Assembly: GCA_016214655.1 (NCBI GenBank)
Contig: JACROC010000004.1
Span: 26,084-90,083, forward strand
Reading direction: 5' to 3'
Origin: Candidatus Harrisonbacteria bacterium
GTDB lineage: Bacteria > Patescibacteriota > Minisyncoccia > UBA6257 > 02-FULL-45-10c
DNA length: 64,000 bases
Shown here: piece by piece, positions 18,944 through 59,992 of the stretch
Numbering within the stretch: position 1 is the first letter of the stretch
How the letters are laid out: every line of letters begins with the position of its first letter
Program-made: the position numbers and the translations under genes
The notes under the pieces: generated by a model
The model's database searches: none
The model's input: only the letters and a program-made list of their open reading frames with translations
Told to the model about the DNA's origin: nothing

Positions 18944-19023
18944 TCCTATTTTCAAGAAGCTAGTATCTACTATAATTTGGCTGGCAGCATTTGGCAAACC
19001 CCCGCCACAATAAAAAACCCGCA

Positions 19024-20571: not shown

Positions 20572-20635
20572 TTTCTTTCTTATTTTATGTCAAACAACTT
20601 ATACCCACTATACGAGCCAGCCAGAAAAAATACAA

Positions 20636-20667
20636 TAGAATCAAAAGGGTCCGACTGGGTCGGACCG
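20636..20667 (-). terminator. hairpin plus U-run just downstream of the Pup-like gene (possible attenuator or terminator)
   Basis: On the minus strand, GGTCCGACCCAGTCGGACC is followed by CTTTTGATT. Confidence 0.35.
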
Positions 20668-20675
20668 ATATATAA

Positions 20676-20873
20676 TTATTCTCCACTCTTCTGCCGGTAT
20701 TCCTGATTAAGCTCTTGCGGATCGCGGTTGCGCGCATTCTTCAGAATATTGCCAAGCTCTTCATCCGCTTCCAAATCCTTCTCTTCTTCCTCTTCTTCCT
20801 CTTCGCCATTTTTCTTCTTCTTTTTAGGCTCTTCCTTCTTTGGCGGTTTCTCCGGCGGCTTTTGCTCGCTCAT
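20676..20873 (-). CDS. pup: Pup-like prokaryotic ubiquitin-like protein with C-terminal QKSGE
   Basis: 65 aa. The N-terminal half is Lys/Glu-rich and looks disordered. The C-terminus ELNQEYRQKSGE resembles the mycobacterial Pup C-terminus (YVQKGGQ) and ends in Glu. The gene lies between PafA/Dop-family genes on the same strand. Confidence 0.65.
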   Translation of the reverse strand: MSEQKPPEKPPKKEEPKKKKKNGEEEEEEEEKDLEADEELGNILKNARNRDPQELNQEYRQKSGE

Positions 20874-20891
20874 TCTTCGCTTTTTAAACCA

Positions 20892-22361
20892 TTAAAGTCC
20901 TAAAATGGATTGTAGCACAACGGCCGTAGAATTATCAAGTACCGGATCCATCAGATCAACGGAAATATCCACTGAATCATTTACCCTAATCTTAATCCCA
21001 GACCAATCAACTTCCACCACCCGATCGCCTAATTTCTTCAAAAGTCCGCTTCTCAAAAACGCACGAGTATTAGCCGGCGCATCAAATTTAGCCGCCAGAA
21101 TCTGTTCATCCGTTACCAGCCGCTTGATTTTGCCAGATTTTACCAATTCGTAATAAAGGCCGTCACTAGCCACCTTCCGGAACAGCTTACTAAAGCCCAG
21201 TGCGGCATCCGGCTGCAATTTTGTAAGCGCCCAAGTGGTAGTCCAATCTAAATATCCGAAAGTTTTCATTGGATCCTTCTCTAGAATCTCCGACAACTCT
21301 AAAGCTTTTGCGACCGCCTGAGTATGCTGATCGGTCATTGGATGCACATTCAAATATTTTCCGGCAGCCAATAAGTACTTTCTCAATATTTCTAGACCAG
21401 TCATTCGCTGACCACCCTCTAAATCAATCATTTCTTTGAATCTGAGGTCGCGCGAGATTTTGATAATTGCTTCAACCGGTTTTTTAGGCAGCAACACTTC
21501 TTCCAAAAACCGGTCTTCAATCATGGCCAGAACTACTTGAGTCAAGGCAATCCGCAAAAAATCCGCGTATTCGCACATCAAGGCATCAGTAGAAATATCA
21601 TGAAGGCGGAAATATTTTTTAGCCGTAGCATGCGGTTCGTCACGCAAATTGAAAATCGGGCGGCTTTCCATGGTATTAATAGCCACCAATCGTTCAAAAA
21701 AATCTGCTCGCTGAGATAACTGGAAAGCGCAAGATGGGCGGTCATTTTCACTGCCGACTTTACCGCCTCCGGTCAAAATAATTCTGCTGATTTGGAATGG
21801 TAAATAATGTTGCAATAAATAAAGAAAGTTATCTTTCTCGGAAACCAAATCCCGGCTTAAAAGAATATTGAGATGGGAACCATAACTCTTGCCGGCGCCA
21901 TCGCTGTTATTTTTATGAAGCACAATTCTGTCCTTGCGGCTGGCCAGTTGGTTTAAATAAAGCCGCAAAGCATCCATCATCACCAATTCGCTGGCTTTGT
22001 CATGAACGACCAAATCCAACGGATTCAGGCACTCTGGGGTGGAATATTCCGGATGATCAACGTCCATATAAAATCGAGCGCCATTGCCCAAAAATCCGTC
22101 CAATTCCGGACCGATATTATCTGCTAGGACGTCATGAGCCGTTTCTTTAAAAAGACCGGCTACATCTTCCAAGGTAATAACGCTGGTTCGGCGGGCTTCT
22201 TTAGATTTATCATGACGGACTGCTTTTTGATATTTCAAAAATTCTTTTACAAAACTGCGCAAAATCTCCCGATATTCATCTCCCAACAATTGATTCCCGC
22301 CTTGGTCAAGAACTGAAAAACCGAATTCATTTTCTATCCCGCAAACCTTAGAGATAGCCAT
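20892..22361 (-). CDS. Pup ligase/deamidase family protein (PafA/Dop), canonical-like
   Basis: 489 aa. Strong matches to PafA signature blocks: CGIENEFGF, GNGARFYMDVDHPEYSTPEC, LHKNNSDGAGKSYGSHLN, FQLSQRADFF, SRPIFNLRDEPHATAKKYFRLHDISTDALMCEY. It sits immediately upstream of pup, as dop does in actinobacteria. Confidence 0.8.
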   Translation of the reverse strand: MAISKVCGIENEFGFSVLDQGGNQLLGDEYREILRSFVKEFLKYQKAVRHDKSKEARRTSVITLEDVAGLFKETAHDVLADNIGPELDGFLGNGARFYMDVDHPEYSTPECLNPLDLVVHDKASELVMMDALRLYLNQLASRKDRIVLHKNNSDGAGKSYGSHLNILLSRDLVSEKDNFLYLLQHYLPFQISRIILTGGGKVGSENDRPSCAFQLSQRADFFERLVAINTMESRPIFNLRDEPHATAKKYFRLHDISTDALMCEYADFLRIALTQVVLAMIEDRFLEEVLLPKKPVEAIIKISRDLRFKEMIDLEGGQRMTGLEILRKYLLAAGKYLNVHPMTDQHTQAVAKALELSEILEKDPMKTFGYLDWTTTWALTKLQPDAALGFSKLFRKVASDGLYYELVKSGKIKRLVTDEQILAAKFDAPANTRAFLRSGLLKKLGDRVVEVDWSGIKIRVNDSVDISVDLMDPVLDNSTAVVLQSILGL

Positions 22362-22420
22362 GTTCTCATATTCCTTTCTTAAAGAATCTGAACATACTTT
22401 AAACTAAAATTGCTATTAAT

Positions 22421-22449
22421 ACAAACAAAAACCCGACTTCCGTCGGGTA
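22421..22449 (-). terminator. rho-independent terminator after the ARC ATPase gene
   Basis: On the minus strand, ACCCGACGGAAGTCGGGT is followed by TTTTTGTTTGT. Confidence 0.45.
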
Positions 22450-22457
22450 CTAATTAC

Positions 22458-24281
22458 TTAACCAGCAAATCCTGTAATCGGCTTATTCACAGCTTCCTTG
22501 AAATTGTTTTTCAATCTTTCGACCTCTTCATCAATAGCCATGAAAAAATCCTTCTTTTTGATATCGGCAACCGGGTCCTTTTCACCAGCTACTTTTGATC
22601 TATGATATCTTTCTAATGCAATCATTTTGGCGCCATCAACGATACTCTTAATAATCGCACCGGAAAGATAGTTCTTCAACATCACATCTTCATTGCCCTT
22701 TACAGTTTCAACCCGGAAAATATTATTAACTGTCAATTCGGTGCCATCGCTAAATCTGATTTTAACTTCTCTGCCAGTATACGCCAATCGCTTAGCAATA
22801 AGATCGATGAAATGCTCGCGAATTTTTTCTAAATCACCACTCAGAACTACCTCCTCCTCTTCACCACTACCAAAAGAATCAATATATTTGTAAATATGGT
22901 TTTCAAGATATTTTCTAGAAAACGGGAGGTCGGCAGCAAGATAAATCCGGAGGATTTCTTTGACATCCCGCATGGTTTTAGGACGAGGAATAAAAACATC
23001 AACACCTAATCTTCCGGGACGTAAAATTGCCTTGTCCACTAAGTCCTTACGATTAGTCGCGGCCAAGACCAAGATATTTCCCAGGGGATCCACTCCATCA
23101 AGAATTTGATTAAACTGACCAATGTCGGTCGCCATCCAAGGCTCATGCTCCGAGGTGTCACGGCTCCGAAAAAGCGAGTCGATTTCATCTATGAAAACTA
23201 CCACTAGCGCTCCTTCAGCTGCCTTTTCTTTGGCTCTAGCAAAAACTTCCCGGATTTTTCTGGCAGTTTCGCCTACATATTTATGGGTAAGTTCTGCTCC
23301 GCCAATATTCATGAAAAAGCAAGGCAAACCCAACGATCGTCCGAGGTCCGCACCGATGGCTTTAGCGCAAAGAGTTTTTCCGCAGCCCTCTGGCCCATGA
23401 AGAATCAAGCCCTTGGGCATATCCTTTCCCTTAAAAACCTTCACGTAAACTTCTCTCTCTTTAAATGGCAAAAGGATGCGCTGGATTTTCTTAACCGATT
23501 TGGAAAGGCCGCCAACCTGATCCCAAGTGATATCGCTGACATTCTGCAGATCTAAAAAGTGCTCTGACTCTTCGGTTTTGGGTAAAACCCGAATCAGCAC
23601 CCCGCCGCAATTCAAAAGCCGGTCTCCGTCTTTTAATCTCGTTTCTTTCAAATCTGGACTGATATAGCATTGCTGTATCTCGTTATGAGAACTCTCGACT
23701 TCTGCCAATTCCGGATTAATATATGACCGGAAAGTAACAGCCGAGCCCCAATTCCAATATAGCTTAGTCACTTCCACGACCTGACTCTTCCCGTTAACAC
23801 CCACTTCCCAGCCGGATTTTAAATCAGTAGCCTTCGTATTTGGTATTGCCAGCGGCAATTTTCTAAACTGTCCTTCAATTAATACATCAACCTCTTCCAG
23901 TTTGCCGCCGGGATGAGGCCGGACGAATATGCCGTAAGTAAGAGGCGGAGAAGCTAATTGCTCCCGCCATTTCTTACGCCAATTCTCGACCTCCTCCAGC
24001 GCCTTTTTATAACGCTCTTTTTCCTTGGCGCACTCTACCAGTCTCTTCAACAGCCTCTGAATCTCCTCTGATAGCTGGACCCGCTCATGGCGAAGCTGTT
24101 GATTCTCCTCCGCCTTCGCCTCAAGACGCTTGATTCTTTCGTGTGCATCTTGTAATTGATTTAGTAATTCTTTCTCTTGGTGATTCTCCTTTTGGGCGTT
24201 TCCACTTTTCCCTTTTCGTAAACGCTCGAGAAAAACACTTAAATCAGACATTTTCCATTTCATATCCAAATCCCTTATCAA
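22458..24281 (-). CDS. ARC/Mpa-like AAA+ ATPase (N-terminal coiled coil, OB-like region, single AAA module)
   Basis: 607 aa. The N-terminal coiled coil reads ELLNQLQDAHERIKRLEAKAEENQQLRHERVQLSEEIQRLLKRL. It is followed by a beta-rich OB-like region, Walker A GPEGCGKT and Walker B VVFIDEIDS. The C-terminus is ...KPITGFAG, with no GQYL/HbYX tail. Confidence 0.75.
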   Translation of the reverse strand: MIRDLDMKWKMSDLSVFLERLRKGKSGNAQKENHQEKELLNQLQDAHERIKRLEAKAEENQQLRHERVQLSEEIQRLLKRLVECAKEKERYKKALEEVENWRKKWREQLASPPLTYGIFVRPHPGGKLEEVDVLIEGQFRKLPLAIPNTKATDLKSGWEVGVNGKSQVVEVTKLYWNWGSAVTFRSYINPELAEVESSHNEIQQCYISPDLKETRLKDGDRLLNCGGVLIRVLPKTEESEHFLDLQNVSDITWDQVGGLSKSVKKIQRILLPFKEREVYVKVFKGKDMPKGLILHGPEGCGKTLCAKAIGADLGRSLGLPCFFMNIGGAELTHKYVGETARKIREVFARAKEKAAEGALVVVFIDEIDSLFRSRDTSEHEPWMATDIGQFNQILDGVDPLGNILVLAATNRKDLVDKAILRPGRLGVDVFIPRPKTMRDVKEILRIYLAADLPFSRKYLENHIYKYIDSFGSGEEEEVVLSGDLEKIREHFIDLIAKRLAYTGREVKIRFSDGTELTVNNIFRVETVKGNEDVMLKNYLSGAIIKSIVDGAKMIALERYHRSKVAGEKDPVADIKKKDFFMAIDEEVERLKNNFKEAVNKPITGFAG

Positions 24282-34185: not shown

Positions 34186-34578
34186 TCATTTTTCCGAAAC
34201 CGATTTCAGCCAGCCACCGAGCATTCTTCCGATTTCCTGCAGCAGCGATTGGAGCCGGACATATTTTTTCGCATCAATAATTTTTATTTCCTTCAAAAGC
34301 CTCACTAATATTTTCAAAGTATCAAACTTAGAACTAGCCTTCTGAAGAGCAACGTATTTGCCGGACTTGTTAATGCCGGCCGCAAAAAGAATCAGCTCTA
34401 AAAATTCTAAGGCGGCATCTTCACATCTTTTACCAAGAGTATAGCGATCTTTCTTTGGAAAAAGTTCTGCATAGGAATAAAATAACTTATAAAAATCGTA
34501 AATTTTCTGTACGATAGGAGTATCCAGATGCAATCCCTCTTCTTGAATATGAAAATTGTCCATAATATTTTTGATCAA
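34186..34578 (-). CDS. Avd-like four-helix-bundle accessory protein (23S rRNA-intervening-sequence protein family)
   Basis: About 130 aa, helical, similar to four-helix-bundle proteins found beside DGR reverse transcriptases. It starts at TTG 34578 or ATG 34563. It is divergent from and slightly overlaps the RT gene. Confidence 0.55.
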   Translation of the reverse strand: MIKNIMDNFHIQEEGLHLDTPIVQKIYDFYKLFYSYAELFPKKDRYTLGKRCEDAALEFLELILFAAGINKSGKYVALQKASSKFDTLKILVRLLKEIKIIDAKKYVRLQSLLQEIGRMLGGWLKSVSEK

Positions 34579-35592
34579 ATTATTTCTTTAGAAAACCTTT
34601 TTCACGCCTGGGATATATTTAAAGTCGGCAAAAGAAGCAAGGCCGATGTCCAGGAATTTGAAAGAAATCTTGAAGATAATATTTTTGCGCTGCATAAAGA
34701 ATTAGAAGATAAAACTTATATTCATAGAGGCTATACCTCTTTTTACATAACCGATCCCAAAGTCCGCCATATTCATAAAGCCCTGGTAAGAGATCGCGTG
34801 ATCCACCACGCTCTCTTTAATGTGCTCTATCCGATTTTTGATAAGACCTTTATCTCTGAATCGTATTCCTGCCGTATCAATAAAGGTACTCATAAAGCAG
34901 TGGATCGCTTCCAAATATATTCGCAAAAAGTAACTAAAAATCACACTAAAAAATGTTTTGTCTTGAAATGCGATATTCAAAAGTTTTTTGCGAGCATTGA
35001 TCATGCTATTTTAAAAACGTTTATAGAAAATAAAATTAAAGATAAAAACGTCTTATGGCTTATAAATATAATTATTGATAGTTTTCACTCAGAAGTAGGG
35101 CTGAATAAAGGCGCGCCAATTGGCAATTTAACTTCTCAATTATTTGCCAATATCTATCTCACTGAACTTGATCAATTTATAAAACAAAACTTAAAAATCC
35201 CTTACTACATTCGATACACGGATGACTTTGTTATCTTGAGTGAAAGTAAAGAATTTTTAATAAAGCTTATCCCAATAATTGAAAAATTCCTGAAATCCAA
35301 CTTAAAACTCACTTTGCACCCCAATAAAATCAGTATCAGGCCATATCATCAGGGAATTGATTTCTTGGGTTACGTACTGTTTCCCCATCATCGCACTCCA
35401 AGGACTCGCACCCGAAGGAGAATCTTTAATAAATTGGAATCTAATATAGCGCTTTGTAAAAATGAGAAGATTCCTATCACCACCCTTGATAATTCTTTGC
35501 AATCTTACTTTGGGTTTTTGAAGCACGCGAATTCCTACAAACTAACGCAAAAATTAAAAAACCAGATTTGGTTCTGGCTGCAAGAAAAATAA
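34528..35592 (+). CDS. diversity-generating retroelement reverse transcriptase
   Basis: 354 aa. RT motifs are present, including YIRYTDDFVIL (YxDD). The DGR-specific motif 4 reads IGNLTSQLF (IGxxxSQ, in place of the group II QGxxxSP). The N-terminus is typical of DGR RTs. Confidence 0.85.
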   Translation: MQSLFLNMKIVHNIFDQIISLENLFHAWDIFKVGKRSKADVQEFERNLEDNIFALHKELEDKTYIHRGYTSFYITDPKVRHIHKALVRDRVIHHALFNVLYPIFDKTFISESYSCRINKGTHKAVDRFQIYSQKVTKNHTKKCFVLKCDIQKFFASIDHAILKTFIENKIKDKNVLWLINIIIDSFHSEVGLNKGAPIGNLTSQLFANIYLTELDQFIKQNLKIPYYIRYTDDFVILSESKEFLIKLIPIIEKFLKSNLKLTLHPNKISIRPYHQGIDFLGYVLFPHHRTPRTRTRRRIFNKLESNIALCKNEKIPITTLDNSLQSYFGFLKHANSYKLTQKLKNQIWFWLQEK

Positions 35593-35626
35593 ATACCCGA
35601 CCTTTTTATTGCCTAATAAAAATTTT

Positions 35627-35665
35627 GGATGGATGGATGGATGGATGGATGGATGGATGGATGGA
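35627..35665. repeat. (GGAT)n tetranucleotide microsatellite, about 9-10 units
   Basis: Perfect GGATGGATGG... run lying between the convergent RT and target genes. Confidence 0.9.
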
Positions 35666-35807
35666 AACGGAAACCGCTTTTCATTTTATTATTTTAACTT
35701 ATTTTTTATAAAAAAAGAATGGGGCGTCTCGCATGTCGCAAAACGCCCCGATGTCCAAGGTCCAAGTACCAAGGCACAAGTGCCAAGATACAAAGACCGA
35801 AGACCTA

Positions 35808-36530
35808 CTACACTACCGCCTCGGAGGCAGACCCCCAGCCCGGAAGCCTGACGCCAGCCCAGCGGCCGTCCAGCGAGGGCACGCCGTCGCGCAGGTACAG
35901 ACCCGGCACGCTGTCGCCGAACCTACCGCACCGCGAGCCGGAAAGATCAACGTAGTGATCCTTCAGAAGGTCAGGGTTTTCGCGATATAGCGCGAGTCCC
36001 TTGACCGTCATCAGACCTCTCCGGTTGTTCCTTCCGAACTCCTCAATGGCGCTGTTCGGCGACCAGTTCAGCATCTTCTTGCCGTTCTCCACTCCGTAGA
36101 TCCAGCCCCATCGGCCTTGCGGCTTCGGGTGCAGATCCTCGTGATAGCTGAGGTCCAGGTAGTTCTTGATGCCAAGCAACTGGCACTGCCTGTCGATCGG
36201 CGTCTCGTAATCCACCAGGAGCGCCAGGCCAAGCTTCAGCTTGGCCTCATCCGGGAGCGAAATATCCTTCTCGTCGAAGGCATAGCCCCGCGCCAGGAGA
36301 TGCTCCACCTGGAACTGCCGGACTTTTTCAGGTTCGCTCTGGAGCTTTGCCGAAAGCTTCTTGATAGAAGCCACGATGTCGGCTTGGAACTCGCCGCCTT
36401 TGCCAATAAGTTGCTGGAGCCCGTCCTTGTCGAGACCGGCTTCCTTACGCGCTTTCTCGGCAGCGTCCTCAACGAACCGCTTGTACTGCTTCTCCTGTCC
36501 GGATGTGATCGATGTTTTCATCGTCATCAT
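35808..36530 (-). CDS. DGR target protein with a C-terminal variable region
   Basis: 240 aa. The gene is GC-rich, in contrast to the flanking sequence. The last ~40 codons (...SRCGRFGDSVPGLYLRDGVPSLDGRWAGVRLPGWGSASEAVV) are encoded by the VR. Confidence 0.7.
   Translation of the reverse strand: MMTMKTSITSGQEKQYKRFVEDAAEKARKEAGLDKDGLQQLIGKGGEFQADIVASIKKLSAKLQSEPEKVRQFQVEHLLARGYAFDEKDISLPDEAKLKLGLALLVDYETPIDRQCQLLGIKNYLDLSYHEDLHPKPQGRWGWIYGVENGKKMLNWSPNSAIEEFGRNNRRGLMTVKGLALYRENPDLLKDHYVDLSGSRCGRFGDSVPGLYLRDGVPSLDGRWAGVRLPGWGSASEAVV
35812..35929 (-). repeat. DGR variable repeat (VR)
   Basis: It matches the TR with substitutions only at TR adenines. Most are A to G, some A to C or A to T. A shared GC-rich 3' element, CTGGGGGTCTGCCTCC, is present in both. 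Confidence 0.75.
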
Positions 36531-36656
36531 CCTCCTTTATGTTAGATCATCGTGCTATTAAGCAACGATGTACTAAATATAGTAAAGCACACTTAAAGCT
36601 ATTTTGTCAAGTTCGCCACGATGCCTCAGTAACTTGGTACCCTACAATCACTTCCT

Positions 36657-37787
36657 TTATTTTCCGAATAAATCTACATATTCGTGCAACTCAAAAGACC
36701 GGTTGCGCGAGAAGCCGGTTTTTTCTTTTAGCACCCCTTTCTGCTCAAACTCATTTACGAGACGAGTTGCCGTTACGAATGCAACTCCGAGTTTTTCGGC
36801 AATCTGGTTTATATTCATAATCGGCTGGGAAAAGAGCCTGAGCAATAATTGCTGACCCAATTCGGCGCGACGCCCCATAGCAACAATTTTTCTTTCGTAA
36901 CGCTGTCGGAGAATGATAATTTTTTCAAATGTTTCTTTTCCTTTTGTTGCCGTTTCAATGACGCCCGATAAGAAGAACTTGATCCATTGTTCGATATTGT
37001 CCGAAGCTCGAACCACCATAAGCGAATCGTAATATGCCCCCTTATTTCTTTCAAAGAAATCTGAAAGATATAAAGTCGGTTTTTGAAGCACGCCTGCTTC
37101 CACCAGTTGCAGGGTGATAAGTAAGCGTCCAACCCTACCATTGCCGTCAAGAAATGGGTGGATAGTTTCAAATTGATAATGACTCATCGCCATCTTAATC
37201 AAAAGCGGAATATCAAGTATTTTATTGTGCCAGAACTTTTCAAGATCGGAAAGCAGCTCTGACACTTCGCTTGGATGCGGCGGGATGAAGAACGCGTCTT
37301 TCAAACTTGAACCGCCAATCCAATTCTGGCTTACCCGTATTTCTCCCGGAGTTTTATATTCGCCACGGACACTTGTAAGCAACATTTTATGCGCACCCCT
37401 TAATAAACGCATCGAGAGGGGCAAGCTCTGAAGTTCTTTGATTGCATGATTTATAGCCGCAATATAATTTTGCACCTCTTTCCAATCATCGCGTCTTTCC
37501 GGATTTACGTCCTCTCTCCGCAGAAGCACCTCGTCAATTCCCGTTTTAGTTCCTTCAATGCGGCTGGAAGTCGTTGCTTCTTTTGCTATGTGCATTTTAA
37601 TGAAATAGTCGACATCCGGCACAAGCGTCGAATAAGCATTCAGTTCGCCCAAAAGCCGCATTGCTTCGCTTAAAAGTAAATTAATCTTGGCATCTTGCCA
37701 CTTAAAAGGCTTGTTGATTGCAGATGGGCTGAAGCTCTTGTATTCCAACTGTTGTTTATACGCACCCGCCTTAAATGATTGTTCCAT
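36657..37787 (-). CDS. Fic family protein (Fic/Doc, probable AMPylase) with C-terminal winged helix
   Basis: 376 aa. The canonical Fic motif [14 protein letters not shown] (HPFx[DE]GNGRxxR) is present. Confidence 0.8.
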
Positions 37788-40842: not shown

Positions 40843-40963
40843 CCCTAGCAAATCCTACTTTCTCGCCAACTCGAAGTCGGTAATATCATCGGAGATATAG
40901 GCTTTCACTTCCGAGTTCGGAATGGGATCGGGTGGGACACCTATAGCTAAATCACTAGGAGAC
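40843..40963 (-). rRNA. rrf: 5S ribosomal RNA
   Basis: The reverse complement contains GTCCCACCCGATCCCATTCCGAACTCGGAAGTGAAA, matching the 5S consensus. It lies about 60 nt downstream of the 23S 3' end. Confidence 0.8.
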
Positions 40964-41023
40964 AAAATAATACACGGATTTTAAAAAAATGTAATTAAGA
41001 ATGAATACTAACTTAAGAGGTCA

Positions 41024-44372
<3,349 letters not shown>

Positions 44373-52094: not shown

Positions 52095-52634
52095 TTACTC
52101 AAAAACACTTCTTTTTTTTCTAGGAAATTTTTCCATTTCATCTATAAATTCTCTGGCGGACTTTTCAATTAAGGGATCGAAAATATTTTTATTAACATCG
52201 GGCCACACAACCGTTGTTCCTTCGGGATATTTCTTATGAATTAATTTTTCCAGATCGGAATAACTGCATAATACCTTGAAAAATAAGGCGCCTTTAACCC
52301 CGTAGCCGGCGATGAAAATCGTCGGCTCTCCTATATCTTCAAAAATTAATGACTTTTTTCTTACGAATGCTAAAAAAATTCCTTTCCCCAAATAGTCCCC
52401 TCGTATACCTCGTTTTTGTGCCTGTTTATTTATTTCCTCCGGCCATTTTATTTCAAAATATAAAAATGGCCCTACGCTCTCTTGCGATTGAAGTGGATAC
52501 AGAACAACATTAGATTCAACTTTTGAACTAAAATGTCTAGAAGAAAGAAAATTATATTGAGCCATTGCTCCAAGTTTCATTCCAACAAGAAATGCTATAA
52601 CTAATACAGCAATGCCAGCCCAAACTTTTTTCAT
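52095..52634 (-). CDS. hypothetical secreted protein
   Basis: 179 aa with an N-terminal signal/TM segment (MKKVWAGIAVLVIAFLVG). Confidence 0.4.
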   Translation of the reverse strand: MKKVWAGIAVLVIAFLVGMKLGAMAQYNFLSSRHFSSKVESNVVLYPLQSQESVGPFLYFEIKWPEEINKQAQKRGIRGDYLGKGIFLAFVRKKSLIFEDIGEPTIFIAGYGVKGALFFKVLCSYSDLEKLIHKKYPEGTTVVWPDVNKNIFDPLIEKSAREFIDEMEKFPRKKRSVFE

Positions 52635-52730: not shown

Positions 52731-54272
52731 TTAAATAAAATACTTTTTCTTAATCTCTTCCTCAATTCTCCCCTGCGCTTCGTCGGCGGATTTTTTGGCA
52801 AACTTAGCCATTTCTGCAAGCTGCTTTTCTTCCATCTGTCCCAAAGCTTTGATTCGCTCAATTAATTTTTCCTTTTCATTTAAAATTGGGTCATCTAATA
52901 CCTCTTCTAAAAGAATAGACAAAACAAAACCGATTTTAGGTCCAGGCTGAATATTAGCTTCCCGCATCACGTCCGCGCCATTCACTTTCAGCATTTTTGC
53001 GCTGATTGGGTCTTGGCTGACTTTTTCAACTCGGAATTTCAAATGGCGCAGACGATATGGTTGCGCTTTAGGCACGCCAGACCCGATCCGGTCTGCTTCC
53101 CGCAATTTGAATAGATCATCAATATTTTCTTTCCCAACCCTGCGAAGCAAGCGCCTCGCACCGGCATCGGTAAACGTTTCCGGATCATAAACAAACATAT
53201 GTTCCCGGACTAATAAAGCAATTTTTTCAACATCCTCGCGGGAAAAATGCAATCGGTCTAAAATTTCTAAGGCCATTTTCTCTCCAACTACCTGATGGCC
53301 GTAAAAAGTGGAGTCTGGTCCATCTCCGCGCTTTGCGCGAGGCTTTCCGACATCATGCAAAAGTGAAGCTAATCTGAGATGTAATGGAAAATTCTGCTTA
53401 ATCGCATAATCCAGTGACCGGACATTATGTTCAAAAACGCTATAAATATGATGCTTGTTTTGTCCCATCTCAACGCCTTCGGTTAATTCCGGAAGGGCTT
53501 GCTTTAGTAAGCCTAACTCCTGCATTTTCCGGATTCCGTCTGCGGCGTTCTCGGTCATTAATAATTTAGACAATTCATCCCTGACTCTTTCTTTAGAAAT
53601 AAATTCCAGCAAACCGGAGTGCTTTTTAATTGCCTCTCCGGTTTCTGCTTCAATCGTAAAACCAAGCTGAGCCATAAAACGCACCGCCCTCATCATTCTT
53701 AAGGCATCCTCTTGGAATCTTTCTTCCGGATTGCCGACTGCCCGGATTATTTTATTTTTTAAATCATTTTTACCGCCGTACGGATCAACTAATCCGTATT
53801 CATTCGTATCATTAGCACGCATTCGTATATTAGTATCACATCTCAACGCCATGGCGTTGATAGTAAAATCTCTGCGAGATAAATCTTCTTCTACGGTTTT
53901 TGCAAATCTGACTTCGTCCGGATGGCGTTTATCGGTATATTTCCCTTCCAGCCTATAAGTTGTGATTTCTACGATTTTTAAAGCAGAGTCTTCAGAGCCA
54001 GTTTTTACTCCGACAGTGCCGAACTGGTTTTCGTAAACACTTTCCGGAAATAACTTCTGTAACTCCTCCGGTTTAGCATTTGTGGCCACATCCCAGTCCT
54101 TCGGTTCTTTGCCAATCAAAAGATCGCGCAGGCACCCGCCGACTAAATAGGCCTCAAAATTGGCTTTTTCTAATGCCAAGCCAATATCTAAAATTTCTTT
54201 CTTTTGCAGTTTTTCCATCTCTCTTATTTTACCCATTTCCTTAGAAATTTTTCCATATCTAAAAATTAACAT
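52731..54272 (-). CDS. cca: CCA-adding tRNA nucleotidyltransferase with HD domain
   Basis: 513 aa. The Pol-beta-like head reads GGCLRDLLIGKEPKDWDVAT. The HD domain reads HDVGK.... Confidence 0.8.
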   Translation of the reverse strand: MLIFRYGKISKEMGKIREMEKLQKKEILDIGLALEKANFEAYLVGGCLRDLLIGKEPKDWDVATNAKPEELQKLFPESVYENQFGTVGVKTGSEDSALKIVEITTYRLEGKYTDKRHPDEVRFAKTVEEDLSRRDFTINAMALRCDTNIRMRANDTNEYGLVDPYGGKNDLKNKIIRAVGNPEERFQEDALRMMRAVRFMAQLGFTIEAETGEAIKKHSGLLEFISKERVRDELSKLLMTENAADGIRKMQELGLLKQALPELTEGVEMGQNKHHIYSVFEHNVRSLDYAIKQNFPLHLRLASLLHDVGKPRAKRGDGPDSTFYGHQVVGEKMALEILDRLHFSREDVEKIALLVREHMFVYDPETFTDAGARRLLRRVGKENIDDLFKLREADRIGSGVPKAQPYRLRHLKFRVEKVSQDPISAKMLKVNGADVMREANIQPGPKIGFVLSILLEEVLDDPILNEKEKLIERIKALGQMEEKQLAEMAKFAKKSADEAQGRIEEEIKKKYFI

Positions 54273-54339: not shown

Positions 54340-54900
54340 TTAATGAGGCGACTCAAAAGTTCTGGGCTGTTCGCCTTTTCGAAATTGTTCTTTTATTTTT
54401 CTTATTTCAACTTCTGCTTTTAAAACTGCGGCGTGCGGCTCTGGATCACTTATTTTCTCGTTTGCCTGGCGACCAACATCAAAATTCCCAGCCTCCATTG
54501 CATTGATGGCGATTTGTACTAAAGCCCAGGAACGGTCAACTGGATCCTCTATCATGTCTGCCGACCGGATAGCAAGATCCAAGGCCTCTGGGCGTCTATA
54601 AGCTCTGGCGATTTCCGAATAATACCGGGCGCGCCTGCTGGGATCCTCTATTTCCTTTGCCCGCCCCAGGGCTCTTTCTCCGCTTTCCATTTCTTGTCTT
54701 ATGCGCTCAATCCGTTCTTTCGTTAAAATCAGCACCCTCTCGCCCATTCCGGCAGTTTCATAAATTGCACCTTCTTCTAAAAGCTTTTTTTCTGTTTGTT
54801 TGCGCTGCTCCTCAATATTAGCAATCTCCCCAGGAGCCCGCCTTGGTAATTCTTCGGATATCATAATCTCATGATATCCTTCCTCCCGCAGCATCGTCAA
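54340..54900 (-). CDS. hypothetical helical protein
   Basis: 186 aa, rich in Arg/Glu, helical. No family recognised. Confidence 0.4.
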   Translation of the reverse strand: MTMLREEGYHEIMISEELPRRAPGEIANIEEQRKQTEKKLLEEGAIYETAGMGERVLILTKERIERIRQEMESGERALGRAKEIEDPSRRARYYSEIARAYRRPEALDLAIRSADMIEDPVDRSWALVQIAINAMEAGNFDVGRQANEKISDPEPHAAVLKAEVEIRKIKEQFRKGEQPRTFESPH

Positions 54901-55012
54901 ATGAATGAAAAATTACTTGTAGAAAAATTAAAAATTTAATAATGTTGATATAAGCCCTCGTAGCCCCGACGCTTACGATCGGGGTCCCGACTGAAACGTC
55001 AGGACTTAAAAT

Positions 55013-55084
55013 GTCCCCGTGGTGAAACGGATATCACGCATGGCTTCGAACCATGAAGTCCGGGTTCAACTCCTGGCGGGGACA
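55013..55084 (+). tRNA. tRNA-Arg(TCG); CCA not encoded
   Basis: GTCCCCGTGGTGAAACGGATATCACGCATGGCTTCGAACCATGAAGTCCGGGTTCAACTCCTGGCGGGGACA. The acceptor and D stems pair. The anticodon loop is CTTCGAA. Confidence 0.8.
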
Positions 55085-55093
55085 CAAAATATA

Positions 55094-55119
55094 AATCATC
55101 CGCCAACCGGCGGATGATT
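55094..55119. terminator. bidirectional hairpin between tRNA-Arg and the convergent Cys-rich protein gene
   Basis: AATCATCCGCC-AACC-GGCGGATGATT perfect stem. A U-run lies on the minus-strand side. Confidence 0.5.
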
Positions 55120-55125
55120 TCATTA

Positions 55126-56910
55126 CTACGGCTGCTGATATTGCTGCTGATACTGCTCTTGATATTTCTGATACTGTTGCTGGTATTCCGGCGGAATCTG
55201 CTGCTGATATTTTTGTAAATCCTCCGGCGAAGGAGCTCGGAATCCGGCTGGCGGAGTAAAACCTTCCGACGGCTTAAACCCTTCCGGTAATTTGAGTCTC
55301 TCGGGTGGCTTAAAGCCCTCAGGGATTTTAATCCCTTCTGGCGGCTTAAATTCTTCTGGCATAGAACCTCTTGATGTTTTAAAACTTTCCGGTATTGGTT
55401 TACCTTCTGGCCACTGAGACGCTCCCGGCAGCCAACAAACTTTATATCCCATATTATCAACTGATAATACTGTGCCGGGTTGCTCAATATCGCATTGTTC
55501 TTGAGTAATGGCGCAATAACTGCGATTAGTTTTAGTATTGATTTCTTGATTCCAGCCGCGGCTGCATTTTCCGCCGCCAGAAGGACTGCCGGTTGGACCA
55601 AAATAAGGCATATTATACCCTCCGGGAACTCCCGGGAAACCGCTAGGCGACTTGAAACCCTTGCACTCTTCAGGATTCGCTTGGCAATAGGCAGTACATT
55701 CTTCCATGGACGAACAGCCGCCCGGACCCTTAAATCCGGTTTCGGTACCTGGCGGCGCGGATTTCTGACATTGTTCATTTTTCGGATCTGACTGACAATA
55801 AGAAGAACATTCTTCAAAACTCTTACAGCCGCCGGGACCAGAAAATTCACCATTCTCTTTAAATTGCCCGAATCCCGGAGGAATAGATTTCTCAAAACAA
55901 GACTTCATTTTTTCGCCGATATCTCTGCTGCCGAAAGGCTTTCCGGCTTCCAGCTTATCCAAACCGCCAGGCCCCAGAACCGCTTCAATGCATTCTTTAA
56001 TTTCCGGCGGCGCTTTCCCTAAATCACGCTTAATAAAATCCCGCCCTTGCTGCATCCTTTGTAAATCCACTTCTTTAATCAAGCCGTTCTCTTTGGCAAA
56101 TTCAAAACAAGTTTCTTGGTTTGCCGGATCTTCACAAAAGACTTTACAAGCCCGGCCGCGGCAGCCGCCTGGACCGCGACCGCCGGTTTTTTTGACTATC
56201 TCCGCTTCCTCTTTGGAAATAAAACCGGCCTTTTCCGCGAAAGAAACACATTCTTCGGCGTGGCTCTCATCTTCGCAATAAGCCTCGCAAGCCCCCTTAG
56301 ATTTGCAGGCGCCCGGCGTTTCGCCCCTTTTCATAAGCGGTAAAATCTTTTTAGCCTCTCCCAATTCTTCTTGGCTAATTATTCCTGCATCCTCTGCAAA
56401 TGCCAGACACTCATCCGCATTGTCCGGATTACCGCAATAACTCTCACAAGATTTTTTATCGCCGCATCCCCCCGGCAACTTAGCGCCTCGCTTGATAGCC
56501 CCCTGAACCTTCTTTGCTTCTTCTAACTGGCCTTGATCCATCAGTCCATTCTTTTCGGCAAATGACAAACACTCATCTACATTATCAATATCATCACAAA
56601 AAGATTCGCAAGATTTTTGGGAATTGCATCCGCCTGGGCCATTTTTCACTTCTGCTAATTTTTCTGCTTTCTTCAATTCATCTTCCGGCAGAAGATTATA
56701 TTTCCTAGCAAAACTCAAACAAGGTTTGGCATTTTCCGGTTTATCGCAAAATGCCCGGCAATCAGTTTCGCTCTTGCAGTTATTTAATTCCGCAACCGGA
56801 AATTTGATGTCTGCCGACGAAGCCGCTAAGACATCCCAAACTAAAAATAAAGAGATTAAAATTCCCATCATTAAAATACTGATTGATATATTTTTTGTGC
56901 TGATAAACAT
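55126..56910 (-). CDS. secreted modular cysteine-rich repeat protein with Pro-rich and Gln/Tyr-rich C-terminal tail
   Basis: 594 aa with a signal peptide. It has about seven modules of the form C-x5-C-x3-C-x7/8-C (for example CKSETDCRAFCDKPENAKPC, CNSQKSCESFCDDIDNVDEC). Several are followed by LSFAxKxGL. Then come PEGFKPPE-type proline repeats and a QQYQKYQEQYQQQYQQP tail. It is the last gene of the znuCB operon on this strand. Confidence 0.6.
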   Translation of the reverse strand: MFISTKNISISILMMGILISLFLVWDVLAASSADIKFPVAELNNCKSETDCRAFCDKPENAKPCLSFARKYNLLPEDELKKAEKLAEVKNGPGGCNSQKSCESFCDDIDNVDECLSFAEKNGLMDQGQLEEAKKVQGAIKRGAKLPGGCGDKKSCESYCGNPDNADECLAFAEDAGIISQEELGEAKKILPLMKRGETPGACKSKGACEAYCEDESHAEECVSFAEKAGFISKEEAEIVKKTGGRGPGGCRGRACKVFCEDPANQETCFEFAKENGLIKEVDLQRMQQGRDFIKRDLGKAPPEIKECIEAVLGPGGLDKLEAGKPFGSRDIGEKMKSCFEKSIPPGFGQFKENGEFSGPGGCKSFEECSSYCQSDPKNEQCQKSAPPGTETGFKGPGGCSSMEECTAYCQANPEECKGFKSPSGFPGVPGGYNMPYFGPTGSPSGGGKCSRGWNQEINTKTNRSYCAITQEQCDIEQPGTVLSVDNMGYKVCWLPGASQWPEGKPIPESFKTSRGSMPEEFKPPEGIKIPEGFKPPERLKLPEGFKPSEGFTPPAGFRAPSPEDLQKYQQQIPPEYQQQYQKYQEQYQQQYQQP

Positions 56911-56912
56911 AA

Positions 56913-57167
56913 TTATTGAGAAAATGGATTCCTATATTTAAATGGGTTGGTTTTTTCCACTGGATTTAATTCCGGAAGCTTTCCTTGCACTGGATTGGAT
57001 TGAATCTCAATTTCGGGAACAGCCGGAGTTTCAGTTATAGCCTGAAGGGCCTCGCCAATATTTTCAACCGGCTTAACTTCTTTTTTCCCCAAAAACCACC
57101 AATAAAAAATTCCGATCCCGACCAAGGCCACTGCTAAGATTACTAATATAACAAGTCGCTTATTCAT
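56913..57167 (-). CDS. small membrane-anchored protein
   Basis: 84 aa with an N-terminal TM segment (LVILVILAVALVGIGIFYWWFL). Confidence 0.35.
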   Translation of the reverse strand: MNKRLVILVILAVALVGIGIFYWWFLGKKEVKPVENIGEALQAITETPAVPEIEIQSNPVQGKLPELNPVEKTNPFKYRNPFSQ

Positions 57168-57196: not shown

Positions 57197-57976
57197 TTAC
57201 CTTTGCCGCCCAATCAAAGCCCGCCAGACAAAAGACAAAATGAATATTCCCGTCCCAACTAAAATAAAAATAGGGCCCGGTGCCTGATTGTATAAACTGG
57301 ATAAATAAACTCCTAAAACGGCGGATGACACCCCAAACAGGACGCTTAAAAACATAAATTCATTCAAACTTTTGGAAACATTTTTAGCCGCTGCCGCCGG
57401 AATAATAATCAAAGCACCCATTAAAAGCGCGCCGATGAATTTAATCCCCAAAGCCACTCCCAACGCAAACAGCAATAAATAAATTAACTCCAATTGCTTA
57501 GAGCGGATGCCGATAGAGGAAGATAACTCATGAGATACCATATGTAGGGCCAATTTTTTATGAACCGCTAAAAGAACCGCGATCAAGATAGCCGATAATC
57601 CAACAGAAACCAAAACGTCGTTAAAACTTAACTTGGCAATATCTCCGAAAAGCGCCTCTAAAAGTTCCAGCTGCGGAATAAGCAAGGCGCCAACCGCCAA
57701 AGAAGCCGTAAAAAATACCCCCACAATCGTTTCTACTGAAAGCTTGGTACGGTATTCCAATGCCCAAATGCCAAAGGCAGATAAGAACAAAAATGCCAAT
57801 GCTCCCAAAAAAGGATTAACTTTAAAGAAAATAGCCAAGGCAATTCCGGGCAATGCCACGTGAGAAAGAGCATCGCCTACCAGCGACATTCTCTTCAAAA
57901 TTGCAAACACGCCGAGCAGGCTTGCAGCGGCCGATATGAAAATTCCAACGATTAATTGAGGTAAAATATCAGTCAT
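57197..57976 (-). CDS. znuB: metal (Zn/Mn) ABC transporter permease
   Basis: The ORF runs to 58102, but the likely start is ATG 57976 (MTDILPQLIVGIF), just after the ATPase gene. The polytopic profile is typical of ZnuB/MntB. Confidence 0.75.
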   Translation of the reverse strand: MTDILPQLIVGIFISAAASLLGVFAILKRMSLVGDALSHVALPGIALAIFFKVNPFLGALAFLFLSAFGIWALEYRTKLSVETIVGVFFTASLAVGALLIPQLELLEALFGDIAKLSFNDVLVSVGLSAILIAVLLAVHKKLALHMVSHELSSSIGIRSKQLELIYLLLFALGVALGIKFIGALLMGALIIIPAAAAKNVSKSLNEFMFLSVLFGVSSAVLGVYLSSLYNQAPGPIFILVGTGIFILSFVWRALIGRQR

Positions 57977-57990
57977 ATATTTAGAGATAA

Positions 57991-58716
57991 TTAATGCTGA
58001 TGGCCGTCGGCATGCCCAAAGTGATGGTAAAACGCATGCTCGCCGCCATACAATTTCTGCATTTGAACCGGACTTAATACATCTTGCGGGGAACCGAAAC
58101 AAATCTTCTGCCGATTAAGGCATAATACTTTTTCGGCATATTTATAAACAACATTTAAATCGTGAGAAATAAGTATGATGGTTAAATTATATTTATCCTG
58201 CAGATGATGAAGAAGCTGATAAATTGATTCTTGGCCCCGTATGTCAATGTCCGCAGTCGGCTCATCAAACAGCAATACCCGCGGCTTCCCCAATAATGCC
58301 CAGGCGATTAAAATTCTCTGGCGCTGCCCCACGGAAATCTCTCCAAGCCCGAAATTTAAAATTTCTTCCGGCAATAAAACAGATCTTACTGCGTCGTGGG
58401 CTTTCTCTTCCGAAAAATTTTCGCTTCCCCGAAGGCGCAAAAACTCCCTGATCGTTAAAGGAACGTCGGTTTCTATTTCCATTCTTTGCGGCACATAACC
58501 GATTCTAATTCCATCTTCCCATTTAATATCGCCATGATACGGGGTCATCCCCAGAAGCGCCTTGAATAAGGTGGTCTTTCCGGCTCCATTTGGACCGATT
58601 ACCGCCAACACATCGCCTTCCCTAACTTCAAAATCGAGGTCCTCAATAATTTTATCTTCGTCAAAACTGACAGTTAAATTAGCAACTTTTAATACTAGCT
58701 TGTTATCGGCTGGCAT
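57991..58716 (-). CDS. znuC: metal ABC transporter ATP-binding protein
   Basis: 241 aa. Walker A GPNGAGKTT, signature LSGGQ-like (ISVGQRQR), Walker B LLFDEPT. Confidence 0.85.
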   Translation of the reverse strand: MPADNKLVLKVANLTVSFDEDKIIEDLDFEVREGDVLAVIGPNGAGKTTLFKALLGMTPYHGDIKWEDGIRIGYVPQRMEIETDVPLTIREFLRLRGSENFSEEKAHDAVRSVLLPEEILNFGLGEISVGQRQRILIAWALLGKPRVLLFDEPTADIDIRGQESIYQLLHHLQDKYNLTIILISHDLNVVYKYAEKVLCLNRQKICFGSPQDVLSPVQMQKLYGGEHAFYHHFGHADGHQH

Positions 58717-58752
58717 AATATACTAATTTTAAACTTAATAATTACATTATAT

Positions 58753-59325
58753 ATGGAATCAGTGCTTTTGTCTTATCTCAATTACTGGGAGCCGTTGAAA
58801 TACATAATAATTTTTCTCGGCATGATGGTAGAAGGCGATACCGTGCTTTTTATAGCTTCTTTTCTGGCCCACCAAGGACTCATAGATCCGACCGCCATGC
58901 TACTTACCGCTCTCTGGGGCATGATTCTCGGAGATAATTTGTGGTATTCGGCCGGATTAAAATTAAGAAATTCTTCGTCTTGGCTTAATCAATGGGCGGA
59001 AAAACTCGCTAAACCATTTGATGAACACTTGATTAAAAAGCCGTTTCGTACAATTTTTATTGCAAAATTCACTTATGGAATCAATCACGCAATTATCCTC
59101 CGTGCGGGAACCCTAAGAACAAAATGGAGCGAGATAGAAAAAAGCGATATTCTGGCCACGTTGCTTTGGATGATTATAGTTGGAGGCCTAGGTTACTTTT
59201 CAAGCGCTTCCTTCTCTTATGTCAGACATTATTTAAAATTTGCTGAAGTGGCCCTTCTTCTCGGCTTGCTGATTTTTTTCAGTTTAGAATATTTAATTAC
59301 CAAAGGAACCAAGAAAAATCTATAA
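58753..59325 (+). CDS. DedA/TVP38 family membrane protein
   Basis: 190 aa with a DedA-like motif (GMMVEGDTVLFIASFLA). Confidence 0.65.
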   Translation: MESVLLSYLNYWEPLKYIIIFLGMMVEGDTVLFIASFLAHQGLIDPTAMLLTALWGMILGDNLWYSAGLKLRNSSSWLNQWAEKLAKPFDEHLIKKPFRTIFIAKFTYGINHAIILRAGTLRTKWSEIEKSDILATLLWMIIVGGLGYFSSASFSYVRHYLKFAEVALLLGLLIFFSLEYLITKGTKKNL

Positions 59326-59443: not shown

Positions 59444-59992
59444 TTACTCTGGCGAAACCCAGACTTCACGTTTTGCGTCCCAATAATTGCCATCTGGCGA
59501 AACCCAGACTTCACGTTTTGCGTCCCAATAATTGCCATCTGGCGAAACCCAGACTTCACGTTTTGCGTCCCAATAATTGCCGCTTTGATCTATCCACACA
59601 CTTCGTTTATCATCCCAGACCGAATCCCCTTGATCAGTTTGCGCGAATGCATACTGTATGCCCAAAAGAGTCAAAAAATCATTTTTAACATCTAGAAACG
59701 CGCCGGGAGTTTTAAGAATTTTTTGATTAGACGAAGGAGCTGATTTAGGACTAGAAGAAGGTGCAGAAATGGGAGCTGATTTAGGACTAGAAGAAGGTGC
59801 AGAAATGGGAGCTGATTTAGGACTAGAAGAAGGTGCAGAAATGGGAGCTGATTTAGGAGGTGCCACTGAATTTATTAATTTTGATTTCTGCCACCAATAA
59901 ACTCCACCACCCAGTATGATTCCTATAAACATTAAAATAATAATGGTAGCTATTGGCGCTAAACTATTTTTAAACTTTAAGCCACTAAACAT
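59444..59992 (-). CDS. membrane-anchored tandem-repeat protein
   Basis: 182 aa. An N-terminal TM segment is followed by SAPISAPSSSPK x3 and then WVSPDGNYWDAKREV x3. The protein is built from two DNA tandem repeats. An alternative +strand ORF (59396..59695) overlaps it and looks less coherent. Confidence 0.45.
   Translation of the reverse strand: MFSGLKFKNSLAPIATIIILMFIGIILGGGVYWWQKSKLINSVAPPKSAPISAPSSSPKSAPISAPSSSPKSAPISAPSSSPKSAPSSNQKILKTPGAFLDVKNDFLTLLGIQYAFAQTDQGDSVWDDKRSVWIDQSGNYWDAKREVWVSPDGNYWDAKREVWVSPDGNYWDAKREVWVSPE
59450..59584. repeat. 45-bp direct tandem repeat x3
   Basis: The unit TGGCGAAACCCAGACTTCACGTTTTGCGTCCCAATAATTGCCATC occurs three times in a row. The third copy is slightly diverged. 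Confidence 0.85.
59737..59860. repeat. 36-bp direct tandem repeat x3 plus a partial copy
   Basis: The unit GAGCTGATTTAGGACTAGAAGAAGGTGCAGAAATGG occurs three times in a row. Confidence 0.85.

Follow-up and report, generated by a model that had tools for sequence, protein, structure and literature searches.

A predicted membrane protein whose tail carries Asn-Pro-Phe (NPF) motifs and a predicted secreted protein built from tandem four-cysteine modules are encoded side by side in Patescibacteria, the candidate phyla radiation (CPR), as a conserved two-gene unit. The pair, here called the cassette, was analysed in a 64,000-nucleotide (nt) stretch of a Candidatus Harrisonbacteria genome (GenBank assembly GCA_016214655.1, contig JACROC010000004.1, positions 26,084 to 90,083 of the forward strand; hereafter the window), where it lies behind genes for a ZnuCB-like metal transporter. 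The small protein and the Cys-module protein form the conserved unit, because they are paired in 32/32 loci whereas ABC-3 transporter genes accompany them in 3/32; the znuCB adjacency is a feature of one subclade. We give an even chance of being right to the reading that the Cys-module protein, specific to Patescibacteria and probably stapled by disulfides, is a rod-like protein of the envelope or surface and acts together with the NPF-tail membrane partner. The two genes of the cassette are as follows:

55126..56910, minus strand: Cys-module protein, 594 amino acids (aa), with a signal peptide, five full modules, a 2-Cys helical domain, two short modules, a 4-Cys beta domain, Pro-rich repeats and a Gln/Tyr-rich (Q/Y) tail
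56913..57167, minus strand: small partner, 84 aa; one transmembrane (TM) helix is predicted at the N-terminus, and the extracytoplasmic tail ends in NPVQGKLPELNPVEKTNPFKYRNPFSQ; 2 nt separate the stop codon of this gene from the ATG of the Cys-module gene that follows

Loci for comparison were gathered by eight look-ups from Cys-module homologues on long contigs and by a scan of one genome per GTDB species (19 loci). Further loci came from four look-ups with the small protein and from a metagenome scan seeded with ZnuB, the latter kept apart from the count of 32 loci. At every one of the 32 loci not seeded on ZnuB, a gene for a 70-107-aa, single-TM protein with an NPF tail was found directly upstream of the Cys-module gene. 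The original prediction had treated the small membrane protein as incidental; these loci mark it as the conserved partner. The intergenic distance ranged from -50 to +31 nt across the 24 complete pairs. Most gaps were -4 to +4 nt, which implies that the two genes are probably translationally coupled. The reciprocal look-up gave the same picture: for four small proteins on long contigs, the next gene, 2-32 nt downstream, encoded a 505-739-aa protein of 6-8 modules in 4/4 cases.

The small protein is itself a family. A word-indexed search with a single small protein matched only itself, and a profile of 23 small proteins recovered 206 relatives, all 70-107 aa long, with all of the named ones from Patescibacteria. 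In the alignment N80 and P81 are invariant, and the tail follows the pattern NP-x3-K-x-P-[DE]-x-NP-x4-NPFK-x2-[YK]-x-NPF-[E]-COOH. A search for Rosetta-stone fusions that would join the small and the Cys-module protein found none.

The link to the transporter is far more restricted. Genes for an ABC-3 permease and an ATPase were found within the flanks of three of the 32 loci, these being the window, a second Harrisonbacteria locus (L001) and a Giovannonibacteria locus (L014). The ABC-3 genes are contiguous with the cassette only in Harrisonbacteria; in L014 rplT and infC, which run on the opposite strand, come between the two. The remaining genes flanking the cassette vary from locus to locus. 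A gene for the CCA-adding enzyme lies downstream of the cassette in the window and also in L001, L030, L037 and L046, so this part of the synteny is shared.

The scan seeded with ZnuB recovered close relatives only (ZnuB 69-79% identical), seven of which had sufficient downstream sequence. The cassette follows znuB in five of these seven and is absent from two (L035 and L036). Both cassette-less znuCB regions (L035, 6271-10971; L036, 5646-11560) encode a ZnuB that is 72-73% identical. L036 (ZnuB 73% identical) shares the synteny of the window, with RecG, VTT, znuC and znuB on one side and CDP-alcohol phosphatidyltransferase and amino-acid permease genes on the other, and lacks both the cassette and the CCA-adding enzyme gene. 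Behind znuB, L036 has a gene for an exported protein of 185 aa, in which several His lie close to the N-terminus (HAEDHSRH...). No gene for a substrate-binding protein (SBP) was found beside znuCB in any locus examined. The original prediction had suggested a check of whether related znu operons carry the Cys-module gene in place of znuA: the gene follows znuB in five of seven close relatives, and family-wide ABC-3 genes are near it in 3/32 loci.

The product of the Cys-module gene matches, at 100% identity, an NCBI entry annotated as hypothetical, HZB99_01370, encoded in a Candidatus Harrisonbacteria metagenome-assembled genome (MAG; homologue P0001). It contains 34 Cys (5.7% of residues; family median 5.2%) and a single His (family median 0.9%), and the mature protein is acidic (isoelectric point about 5.0). 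A regular expression located seven four-Cys modules, whose first residues are aa 45, 95, 149, 202, 250, 362 and 399. The open reading frame (ORF), the count of about seven modules, the Pro repeat and the Q/Y tail were therefore all as originally predicted. The spacing had been called invariant, with an amphipathic segment after each module. This is true of most modules, which read C-x5-C-x3-C-x8-C; the first gap of module 5 is x4 and the last gap of module 7 is x6. Modules 1-5 are full length (about 50 aa), each followed by a (L/V/F)xFAxxxG...EE(L)xxAKK segment, which is missing from the short modules 6 and 7. The architecture can be divided as follows:

56824..56910, minus strand: predicted signal peptide, aa 1-29 (MFISTK, hydrophobic core, VLA|A), read from the sequence; pLDDT below 50 in the AlphaFold2 model
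56014..56796, minus strand: five-module array, aa 39-299, about 50 aa per module, each GPGG-C-x5-C-x3-C-x8-C followed by F-A-x3-G and an amphipathic helix (sequence and AlphaFold2)
55843..56013, minus strand: helical inter-array domain, aa 300-356, with two near-invariant Cys, C307 and C338 (conservation in the family alignment and AlphaFold2)
55651..55842, minus strand: short modules 6 and 7, aa 357-420, without the third helix (sequence and AlphaFold2)
55420..55578, minus strand: small 4-Cys domain, aa 445-497, predicted beta-rich (Cys region aa 449-492), variable within the family (AlphaFold2; no Pfam match)
55231..55419, minus strand: Pro-rich linker of PEGFKPPE-type repeats, aa 498-560, predicted disordered (sequence; pLDDT below 50)
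55129..55230, minus strand: Gln/Tyr-rich C-terminal tail, aa 561-594, predicted helical (sequence, AlphaFold2 and a 12-nt DNA period)

Secretion, already proposed in the original prediction, is indicated by an N-terminus typical of Sec signals, in which a Lys precedes the hydrophobic core and a cleavage-type site, VLA|A, ends it. The five full modules share 34-55% pairwise aa identity, with the four Cys, F and A invariant among them. Repetition at the DNA level is confined to the Q/Y tail (12-nt period, C-terminus ...QQYQQQYQQP) and is absent from the modules, and the modules would therefore be old duplications. Overlapping ORFs in other frames (e.g. 54999-55895) are mechanical ORFs within the gene or the tRNA region and were disregarded.

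The module was followed through the family with a hidden Markov model (HMM; consensus GPGGCKSKEECEAYCEDPENIEECLNFAEKAGLISEEELEEAKKV) run over 256 homologues. It found 1791 modules, 5-12 per protein. All four Cys are kept in 1780 of them, the exceptions being mostly truncated edge matches, and on this ground the regularity of the pattern is far beyond chance. Other conserved positions are an aromatic residue ahead of C3 (98% of modules), Asn/His in the loop (91%) and Phe at C4+3 (90%). No exchange of Cys for His was seen in the 1791 modules. Pairwise loss of Cys gave no signal of disulfide pairing, since nearly all modules retain all four. The total number of Cys is even in 231/256 family proteins.

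Structure was predicted with AlphaFold2 from a 113-sequence alignment, and a single module was modelled separately. The mean predicted local distance difference test (pLDDT) score of the whole protein was 79.7, rising to 90-97 over aa 40-330. A full module is predicted as three helices (e.g. 48-55/58-70/76-87). On helix 1, C2 and C3 are spaced by one turn; C4 lies on helix 2 together with the F-A motif, and helix 3 is the long amphipathic EELEEAKK helix. C1 belongs to the GPGG loop ahead of these helices. The single-module model also has three helices (pLDDT 81). Beyond the array, the model contains a helical domain with two near-invariant Cys (about aa 300-345, helices within 302-342) and beta strands within 453-493 in the 4-Cys domain (about aa 449-493, pLDDT about 89); the Pro-rich region is predicted to be disordered and the Q/Y tail helical. 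A Foldseek search of the whole model against PDB gave nothing significant, the best matches being designed pentatricopeptide/tetratricopeptide repeat (PPR/TPR) proteins (E = 0.38, TM-score at most 0.2).

The family is large. A word-indexed search returned more than 1357 homologues of the Cys-module protein, and an exhaustive profile search of 1.84 billion cluster representatives (50% identity) returned 1986 clusters at E <= 1e-3 and 1235 at E <= 1e-30. All clade-level names on the matches are Patescibacteria, covering Parcubacteria and Microgenomates lineages (Harrison-, Yanofsky-, Nomura-, Nealson-, Sung-, Giovannoni-, Taylor-, Wolfe-, Wildermuth-, Roizman- and Levyibacteria, Minisyncoccia and Paceibacterota). 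Bin labels such as 'uncultured Gammaproteobacteria' or 'Saccharibacteria' are attached to a few MAG records instead. Database annotation calls every member hypothetical, apart from one 'LamG-like' (an accessory domain) and one 'YppG family', a label that we attribute to the Q-rich tail of that member.

The module is, with the libraries searched, an unrecognised domain, as had been suggested. The Cys-module protein has no Pfam or NCBIfam match at E <= 0.1, and neither the whole protein nor the family or module profile gave anything significant against Pfam, NCBIfam or PDB; EGF-like, keratin-associated, Kazal and defensin-like matches were not found. The sole weak library matches were huntingtin polyQ/polyP to the low-complexity tail and a designed zinc-trimer protein (E = 0.82). 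A match to PF25052 ('AtDEF-like') in some homologues was rejected as compositional: it is barely above the cut-off, has no significant stretch and spans the signal peptide and module 1. No description of the Cys-module family or of the small-protein family was found in the searchable literature on cysteine-rich, secreted or surface proteins of Patescibacteria, Parcubacteria or the CPR. What is new here is the module, the small-protein family and their invariant pairing, which are absent from Pfam and NCBIfam; the sequences themselves were already in the databases as hypothetical proteins.

Around the conserved array the members vary. An N-terminal hydrophobic segment is present in 114/120 homologues and a strongly hydrophobic C-terminus in only 12/120. 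Median tail composition is 14% Pro and 12% Gln. Linkers rich in Pro/Gln occur often, as do amphipathic helices at the C-terminus, and many members end in a short helix of this kind such as ...SLLGLIFNIFVGFSR. LamG (PF13385) is found in five of nine long members, and one other member (P0057) has a Kazal domain at its C-terminus, as an accessory distinct from the modules. In 45/256 members an additional N-terminal domain, about 100 aa long and with two Cys (...LFTLTIxDxxGIxxFSL...KLPYSGDLxGC...DCxG..TEFEI), is followed by a Pro-rich linker ahead of module 1. Members with N- or C-terminal extras include P0006, P0008, P0013, P0020, P0023, P0029, P0030 and P0037, and the protein at 8001-10586 of L001.

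As a side observation, NPF opens the predicted mature N-terminus (e.g. ...AVNPFDITYPV...) of nine of the 256 Cys-module proteins (P0007, P0038, P0039, P0115, P0153, P0156, P0167, P0179 and P0180), an echo of the NPF motifs in the tail of the small partner.

Several known systems resemble the Cys-module protein in part. In architecture only, staphylococcal protein A-type surface proteins are similar, with a signal peptide, at least five tandem three-helix units of about 50-58 aa, Pro-rich repeats and a C-terminal end; as in that group, relatives of the Cys-module protein carry extra binding-type domains (LamG, Kazal). Unlike sortase-anchored proteins, the window protein has no LPXTG, no C-terminal hydrophobic segment and no detectable homology to them. 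Twin CX3C/CX9C (CHCH) proteins and CS-alpha/alpha toxins likewise have four Cys per unit, with a C-x3-C on one of two helices packed together. In the twin CX3C/CX9C fold, however, a CXnC pair sits on each of two antiparallel helices, whereas in the Cys module only helix 1 is predicted to carry a pair, with C1 in a loop and C4 alone in helix 2. The C-x5-C-x3-C-x8-C spacing, the third helix and the 5-10 tandem units in an exported bacterial protein also set the module apart. TPR and PPR proteins, the best Foldseek matches to the whole model, are also elongated arrays of helical units, but their repeats are helix-turn-helix units of 34-35 aa as against three-helix modules of about 50 aa, and the matches have E >= 0.38. 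AtDEF-like (PF25052) and Kazal (PF07648/PF00050) domains are small, Cys-rich and exported, but the window protein matches neither.

The Cys-module protein is also unlike the SBPs that commonly serve this class of transporter. The likeness to ZnuA/TroA cluster A-I SBPs (PF01297) is that both are exported and that the gene here adjoins an ABC-3 permease and an ATPase, a frequent position for an SBP gene. However, no PF01297 or NCBIfam ZnuA/AztC/MntC-type match was found in the Cys-module protein. ZnuA/TroA SBPs consist of two alpha/beta lobes joined by a long rigid helix, whereas the Cys-module protein is predicted to be an all-helical repeat. They bind metal through a His/Asp/Glu site, often with a His-rich loop, and the Cys-module protein has one His and no such loop. 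Moreover, the linkage of the family to ABC-3 genes is not conserved.

From these data the following arrangement can be proposed. The protein would be exported via Sec and its signal peptide cleaved, after which five to ten modules of about 45-50 aa would each fold into a three-helix unit, probably stapled by two disulfides. Together the modules may form an elongated acidic rod, followed by a Pro/Gln-rich disordered linker and a variable C-terminal end: the Q/Y helix in the window protein, and a short amphipathic helix, a LamG lectin-like domain or a Kazal domain in relatives. The extracytoplasmic NPx...NPFK..YKNPF tail of the partner may dock on the module protein and so hold it at the membrane or cell wall. 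The position behind znuCB would be local gene order in the Harrisonbacteria subclade, with no functional link across the family. A role as a scaffold or adhesin-type surface protein is suggested by the conserved N-terminal array with a variable C-terminal end, the LamG and Kazal domains, the extra N-terminal domain, the Pro/Gln linkers and the amphipathic helices.

In the window itself, the genes around the cassette comprise the following:

57197..57976, minus strand: ABC-3 permease, ZnuB/AztB-like (PF00950, E = 2.3e-54; NCBIfam AztB and ZnuB below cut-offs); a neighbour and not a conserved part of the cassette
57991..58716, minus strand: ABC ATPase, ZnuC-like (PF00005; ZnuC the best NCBIfam match, E = 1.2e-51); likewise a neighbour outside the conserved cassette
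58746..58774, minus strand: promoter-like site AAGACA-17-TATAAT upstream of znuC, a consensus match only; the region has no more of these sites than the shuffle expectation
55093..55120, minus strand: intrinsic-terminator-like hairpin with a 12-bp stem, a 4-nt loop and a T-rich tail, starting 6 nt past the Cys-module stop codon

The mechanical ORF of the permease reaches 58102; an ATG at 57976 fits homologues of 255-259 aa. The ATPase scores 175.6 bits in NCBIfam against an equivalog cut-off of 306. It has the His-rich C-terminus HHFGHADGHQH and ends in the tail YHHFGHADGHQH (57991-58020, minus strand); the Giovannonibacteria homologue ends LYHHLH. Such a tail might sense metal in the cytoplasm, in keeping with a Zn-type specificity of the transporter. 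The znuC, znuB, small-protein and Cys-module genes are co-directional on the minus strand with gaps of 14, 29 and 2 nt, and appear to form one transcription unit with the Cys-module gene last. A tRNA-Arg gene lies beyond the terminator on the opposite strand. No PF01297 (ZnuA) protein turned up in a Pfam scan that covered nearly every window ORF of 150 aa or more. The original view that the Cys-module gene closes a znuCB-like unit without ZnuA agrees with this gene order and scan.

Nearby, a 182-aa TM-anchored protein (59444-59992, minus strand) contains two near-perfect tandem repeat sets, SAPISAPSSSPK three times and WDAKREVWVSPDGNY three times, and has no family match. On the other side of the cassette, the CCA-adding enzyme gene (52731-54272) is flanked by genes for a 186-aa (54340-54900, minus strand) and a 179-aa (52095-52634, minus strand) protein without significant family matches. 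The only Pfam match of the 186-aa protein is to Tle3_C at E = 0.017, below the cut-off.

An alternative to a surface role, and one that the original prediction had raised, is that reduced Cys4 modules chelate Zn or another thiophilic metal outside the cell and feed it to the ABC-3 permease, replacing or assisting ZnuA. Several features invite this reading: the Cys-module gene closing an apparent transcription unit that has a promoter-like site and a terminator, the same gene order in L001 and in the 5/7 ZnuB-seeded loci, the lack of a PF01297 gene in the window and of any SBP gene beside znuCB, and the His-rich tail of the ATPase. To these may be added the four invariant Cys with the conserved Asn/His loop position, and the anoxic habitats of many of these organisms. 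Across the family the evidence points elsewhere. ABC-3 genes lie near the cassette in 3/32 loci, with rplT and infC intervening in L014, and L035 and L036 have znuCB and no cassette. The protein has neither homology nor fold similarity to any SBP, and it has one His, with no interchange of Cys and His in the modules. The extracytoplasmic zinc binders ZnuA, ZinT and AdcA use His, Asp and Glu. A metal-capture function would also leave no place for the LamG and Kazal domains or for an obligate NPF-tail partner. We regard metal capture for the transporter as distinctly unlikely, and the idea of a ZnuA surrogate is not supported, given the weak ABC-3 linkage, the cassette-less znuCB of L036, the single His and the non-SBP fold. 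Binding of metal by the Cys4 modules in itself is possible.

A combination of the two readings would make the small and Cys4 proteins a Patescibacteria-wide envelope apparatus whose reduced, metal-ligating modules turn the rod into an extracellular metal-harvesting antenna, operon-coupled, in lineages such as Harrisonbacteria, to an ABC-3 importer with no SBP gene beside it. This we consider very doubtful. If it were true, metal would reach an ABC importer by a new route that needs no SBP.

Metal could also be structural, with a Zn(Cys)4-type site in each module of a surface protein and the transporter irrelevant. Four invariant Cys per module of about 45 aa is the stoichiometry of a structural zinc site, reduced twin-CX3C proteins (small Tims) can bind Zn, and anoxic habitats would again favour reduced thiols. 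This is nevertheless unlikely, in view of Sec export with a cleavable signal, the MdbA/VKOR-type oxidative folding systems of CPR bacteria, the C-x3-C within one helix, which would be an unusual zinc-ligand pair, and the lack of Cys/His exchange. A further possibility, that the exported Cys act as a metallothionein-like thiol buffer or detoxifier, a sacrificial redox or heavy-metal sponge, could draw on the 34 Cys in an exported acidic protein and on the adjoining metal-transporter genes in the window genome. Metallothioneins are about 30% Cys (about 15-30%), with CxC, CC and CxxC clusters and little regular secondary structure. The Cys-module protein, at 5.7% Cys, has instead fixed spacing and positions in confidently predicted helices. 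Such a sponge would leave the conservation of position along the whole array, the accessory domains and the obligate partner unexplained, and we consider it highly improbable.

For the modules themselves, disulfides are favoured over metal ligation on four grounds: Sec export, the enrichment of MdbA and VKOR in the CPR, the C-x3-C on one helical face and the lack of Cys/His exchange. The helix-1 pair on one face would be typical of disulfide-stapled helical hairpins and less so of Zn(Cys)4 sites. This favours the option of disulfide-stabilised extracellular repeats that the original prediction had listed beside metal chelation. An MdbA-like thiol-disulfide oxidoreductase, often adjoining VKOR, is reportedly enriched in CPR bacteria (bioRxiv 10.1101/335083), and this enrichment makes oxidative folding of their exported proteins plausible.

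Some points weigh against the reading of a disulfide-stapled surface protein with no tie to the transporter. The cassette is co-directional and contiguous with znuCB in the window genome and in 5/7 close relatives, with no SBP gene beside znuCB, and a lineage-specific functional link between the two is possible. Anoxic groundwater is the habitat of many Patescibacteria, and under such conditions the thiols of an exported protein could remain reduced and ligate metal. The evidence for a putative interaction of the small protein with the Cys-module protein is gene order. The number of NP motifs is weakly correlated with the number of modules (Spearman 0.445, p = 0.03), a result that is confounded by phylogeny and not relied on here. 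Finally, the window protein lacks the C-terminal amphipathic helix of many of its relatives.

Elsewhere in the window, three paralogous genes of the Pup-ligase family (PF03136; 17480-19063, 19024-20571 and 20892-22361) adjoin an AAA ATPase gene (22458-24281), and 17480-24281 (minus strand) is read from these matches as a pupylation (PafA/Dop/Mpa-like) cluster in a Patescibacteria genome. An RVT_1 reverse transcriptase gene (34528-35592, plus strand) adjoins genes for a DUF5701 protein (35808-36530) and for a Fic/DOC protein whose C-terminus is MarR-like (36657-37787); the region 34528-37787 is a possible retroelement or defence-type neighbourhood. A 23S rRNA match in the region 40843-44351 (minus strand) covers 3339 nt against a 2925-nt Rfam model, and so contains about 400 nt of insertions. 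A 5S rRNA at 40843-40959 adjoins it, and no 16S rRNA was found in the window.

The Patescibacteria make up a large share of bacterial diversity and their surfaces mediate episymbiosis, yet their envelope proteins are almost entirely uncharacterised. The position of the Cys-module gene in one lineage is no basis for annotating it in zinc transport. Should the modules bind metal after all, the family would offer an uncommon example of thiolate metal chemistry outside the bacterial cell. The family of about 2,000 clusters (50% identity), together with its small partner, offers a concrete two-gene target for work on the CPR envelope by metaproteomics, cryo-electron tomography and structure determination.

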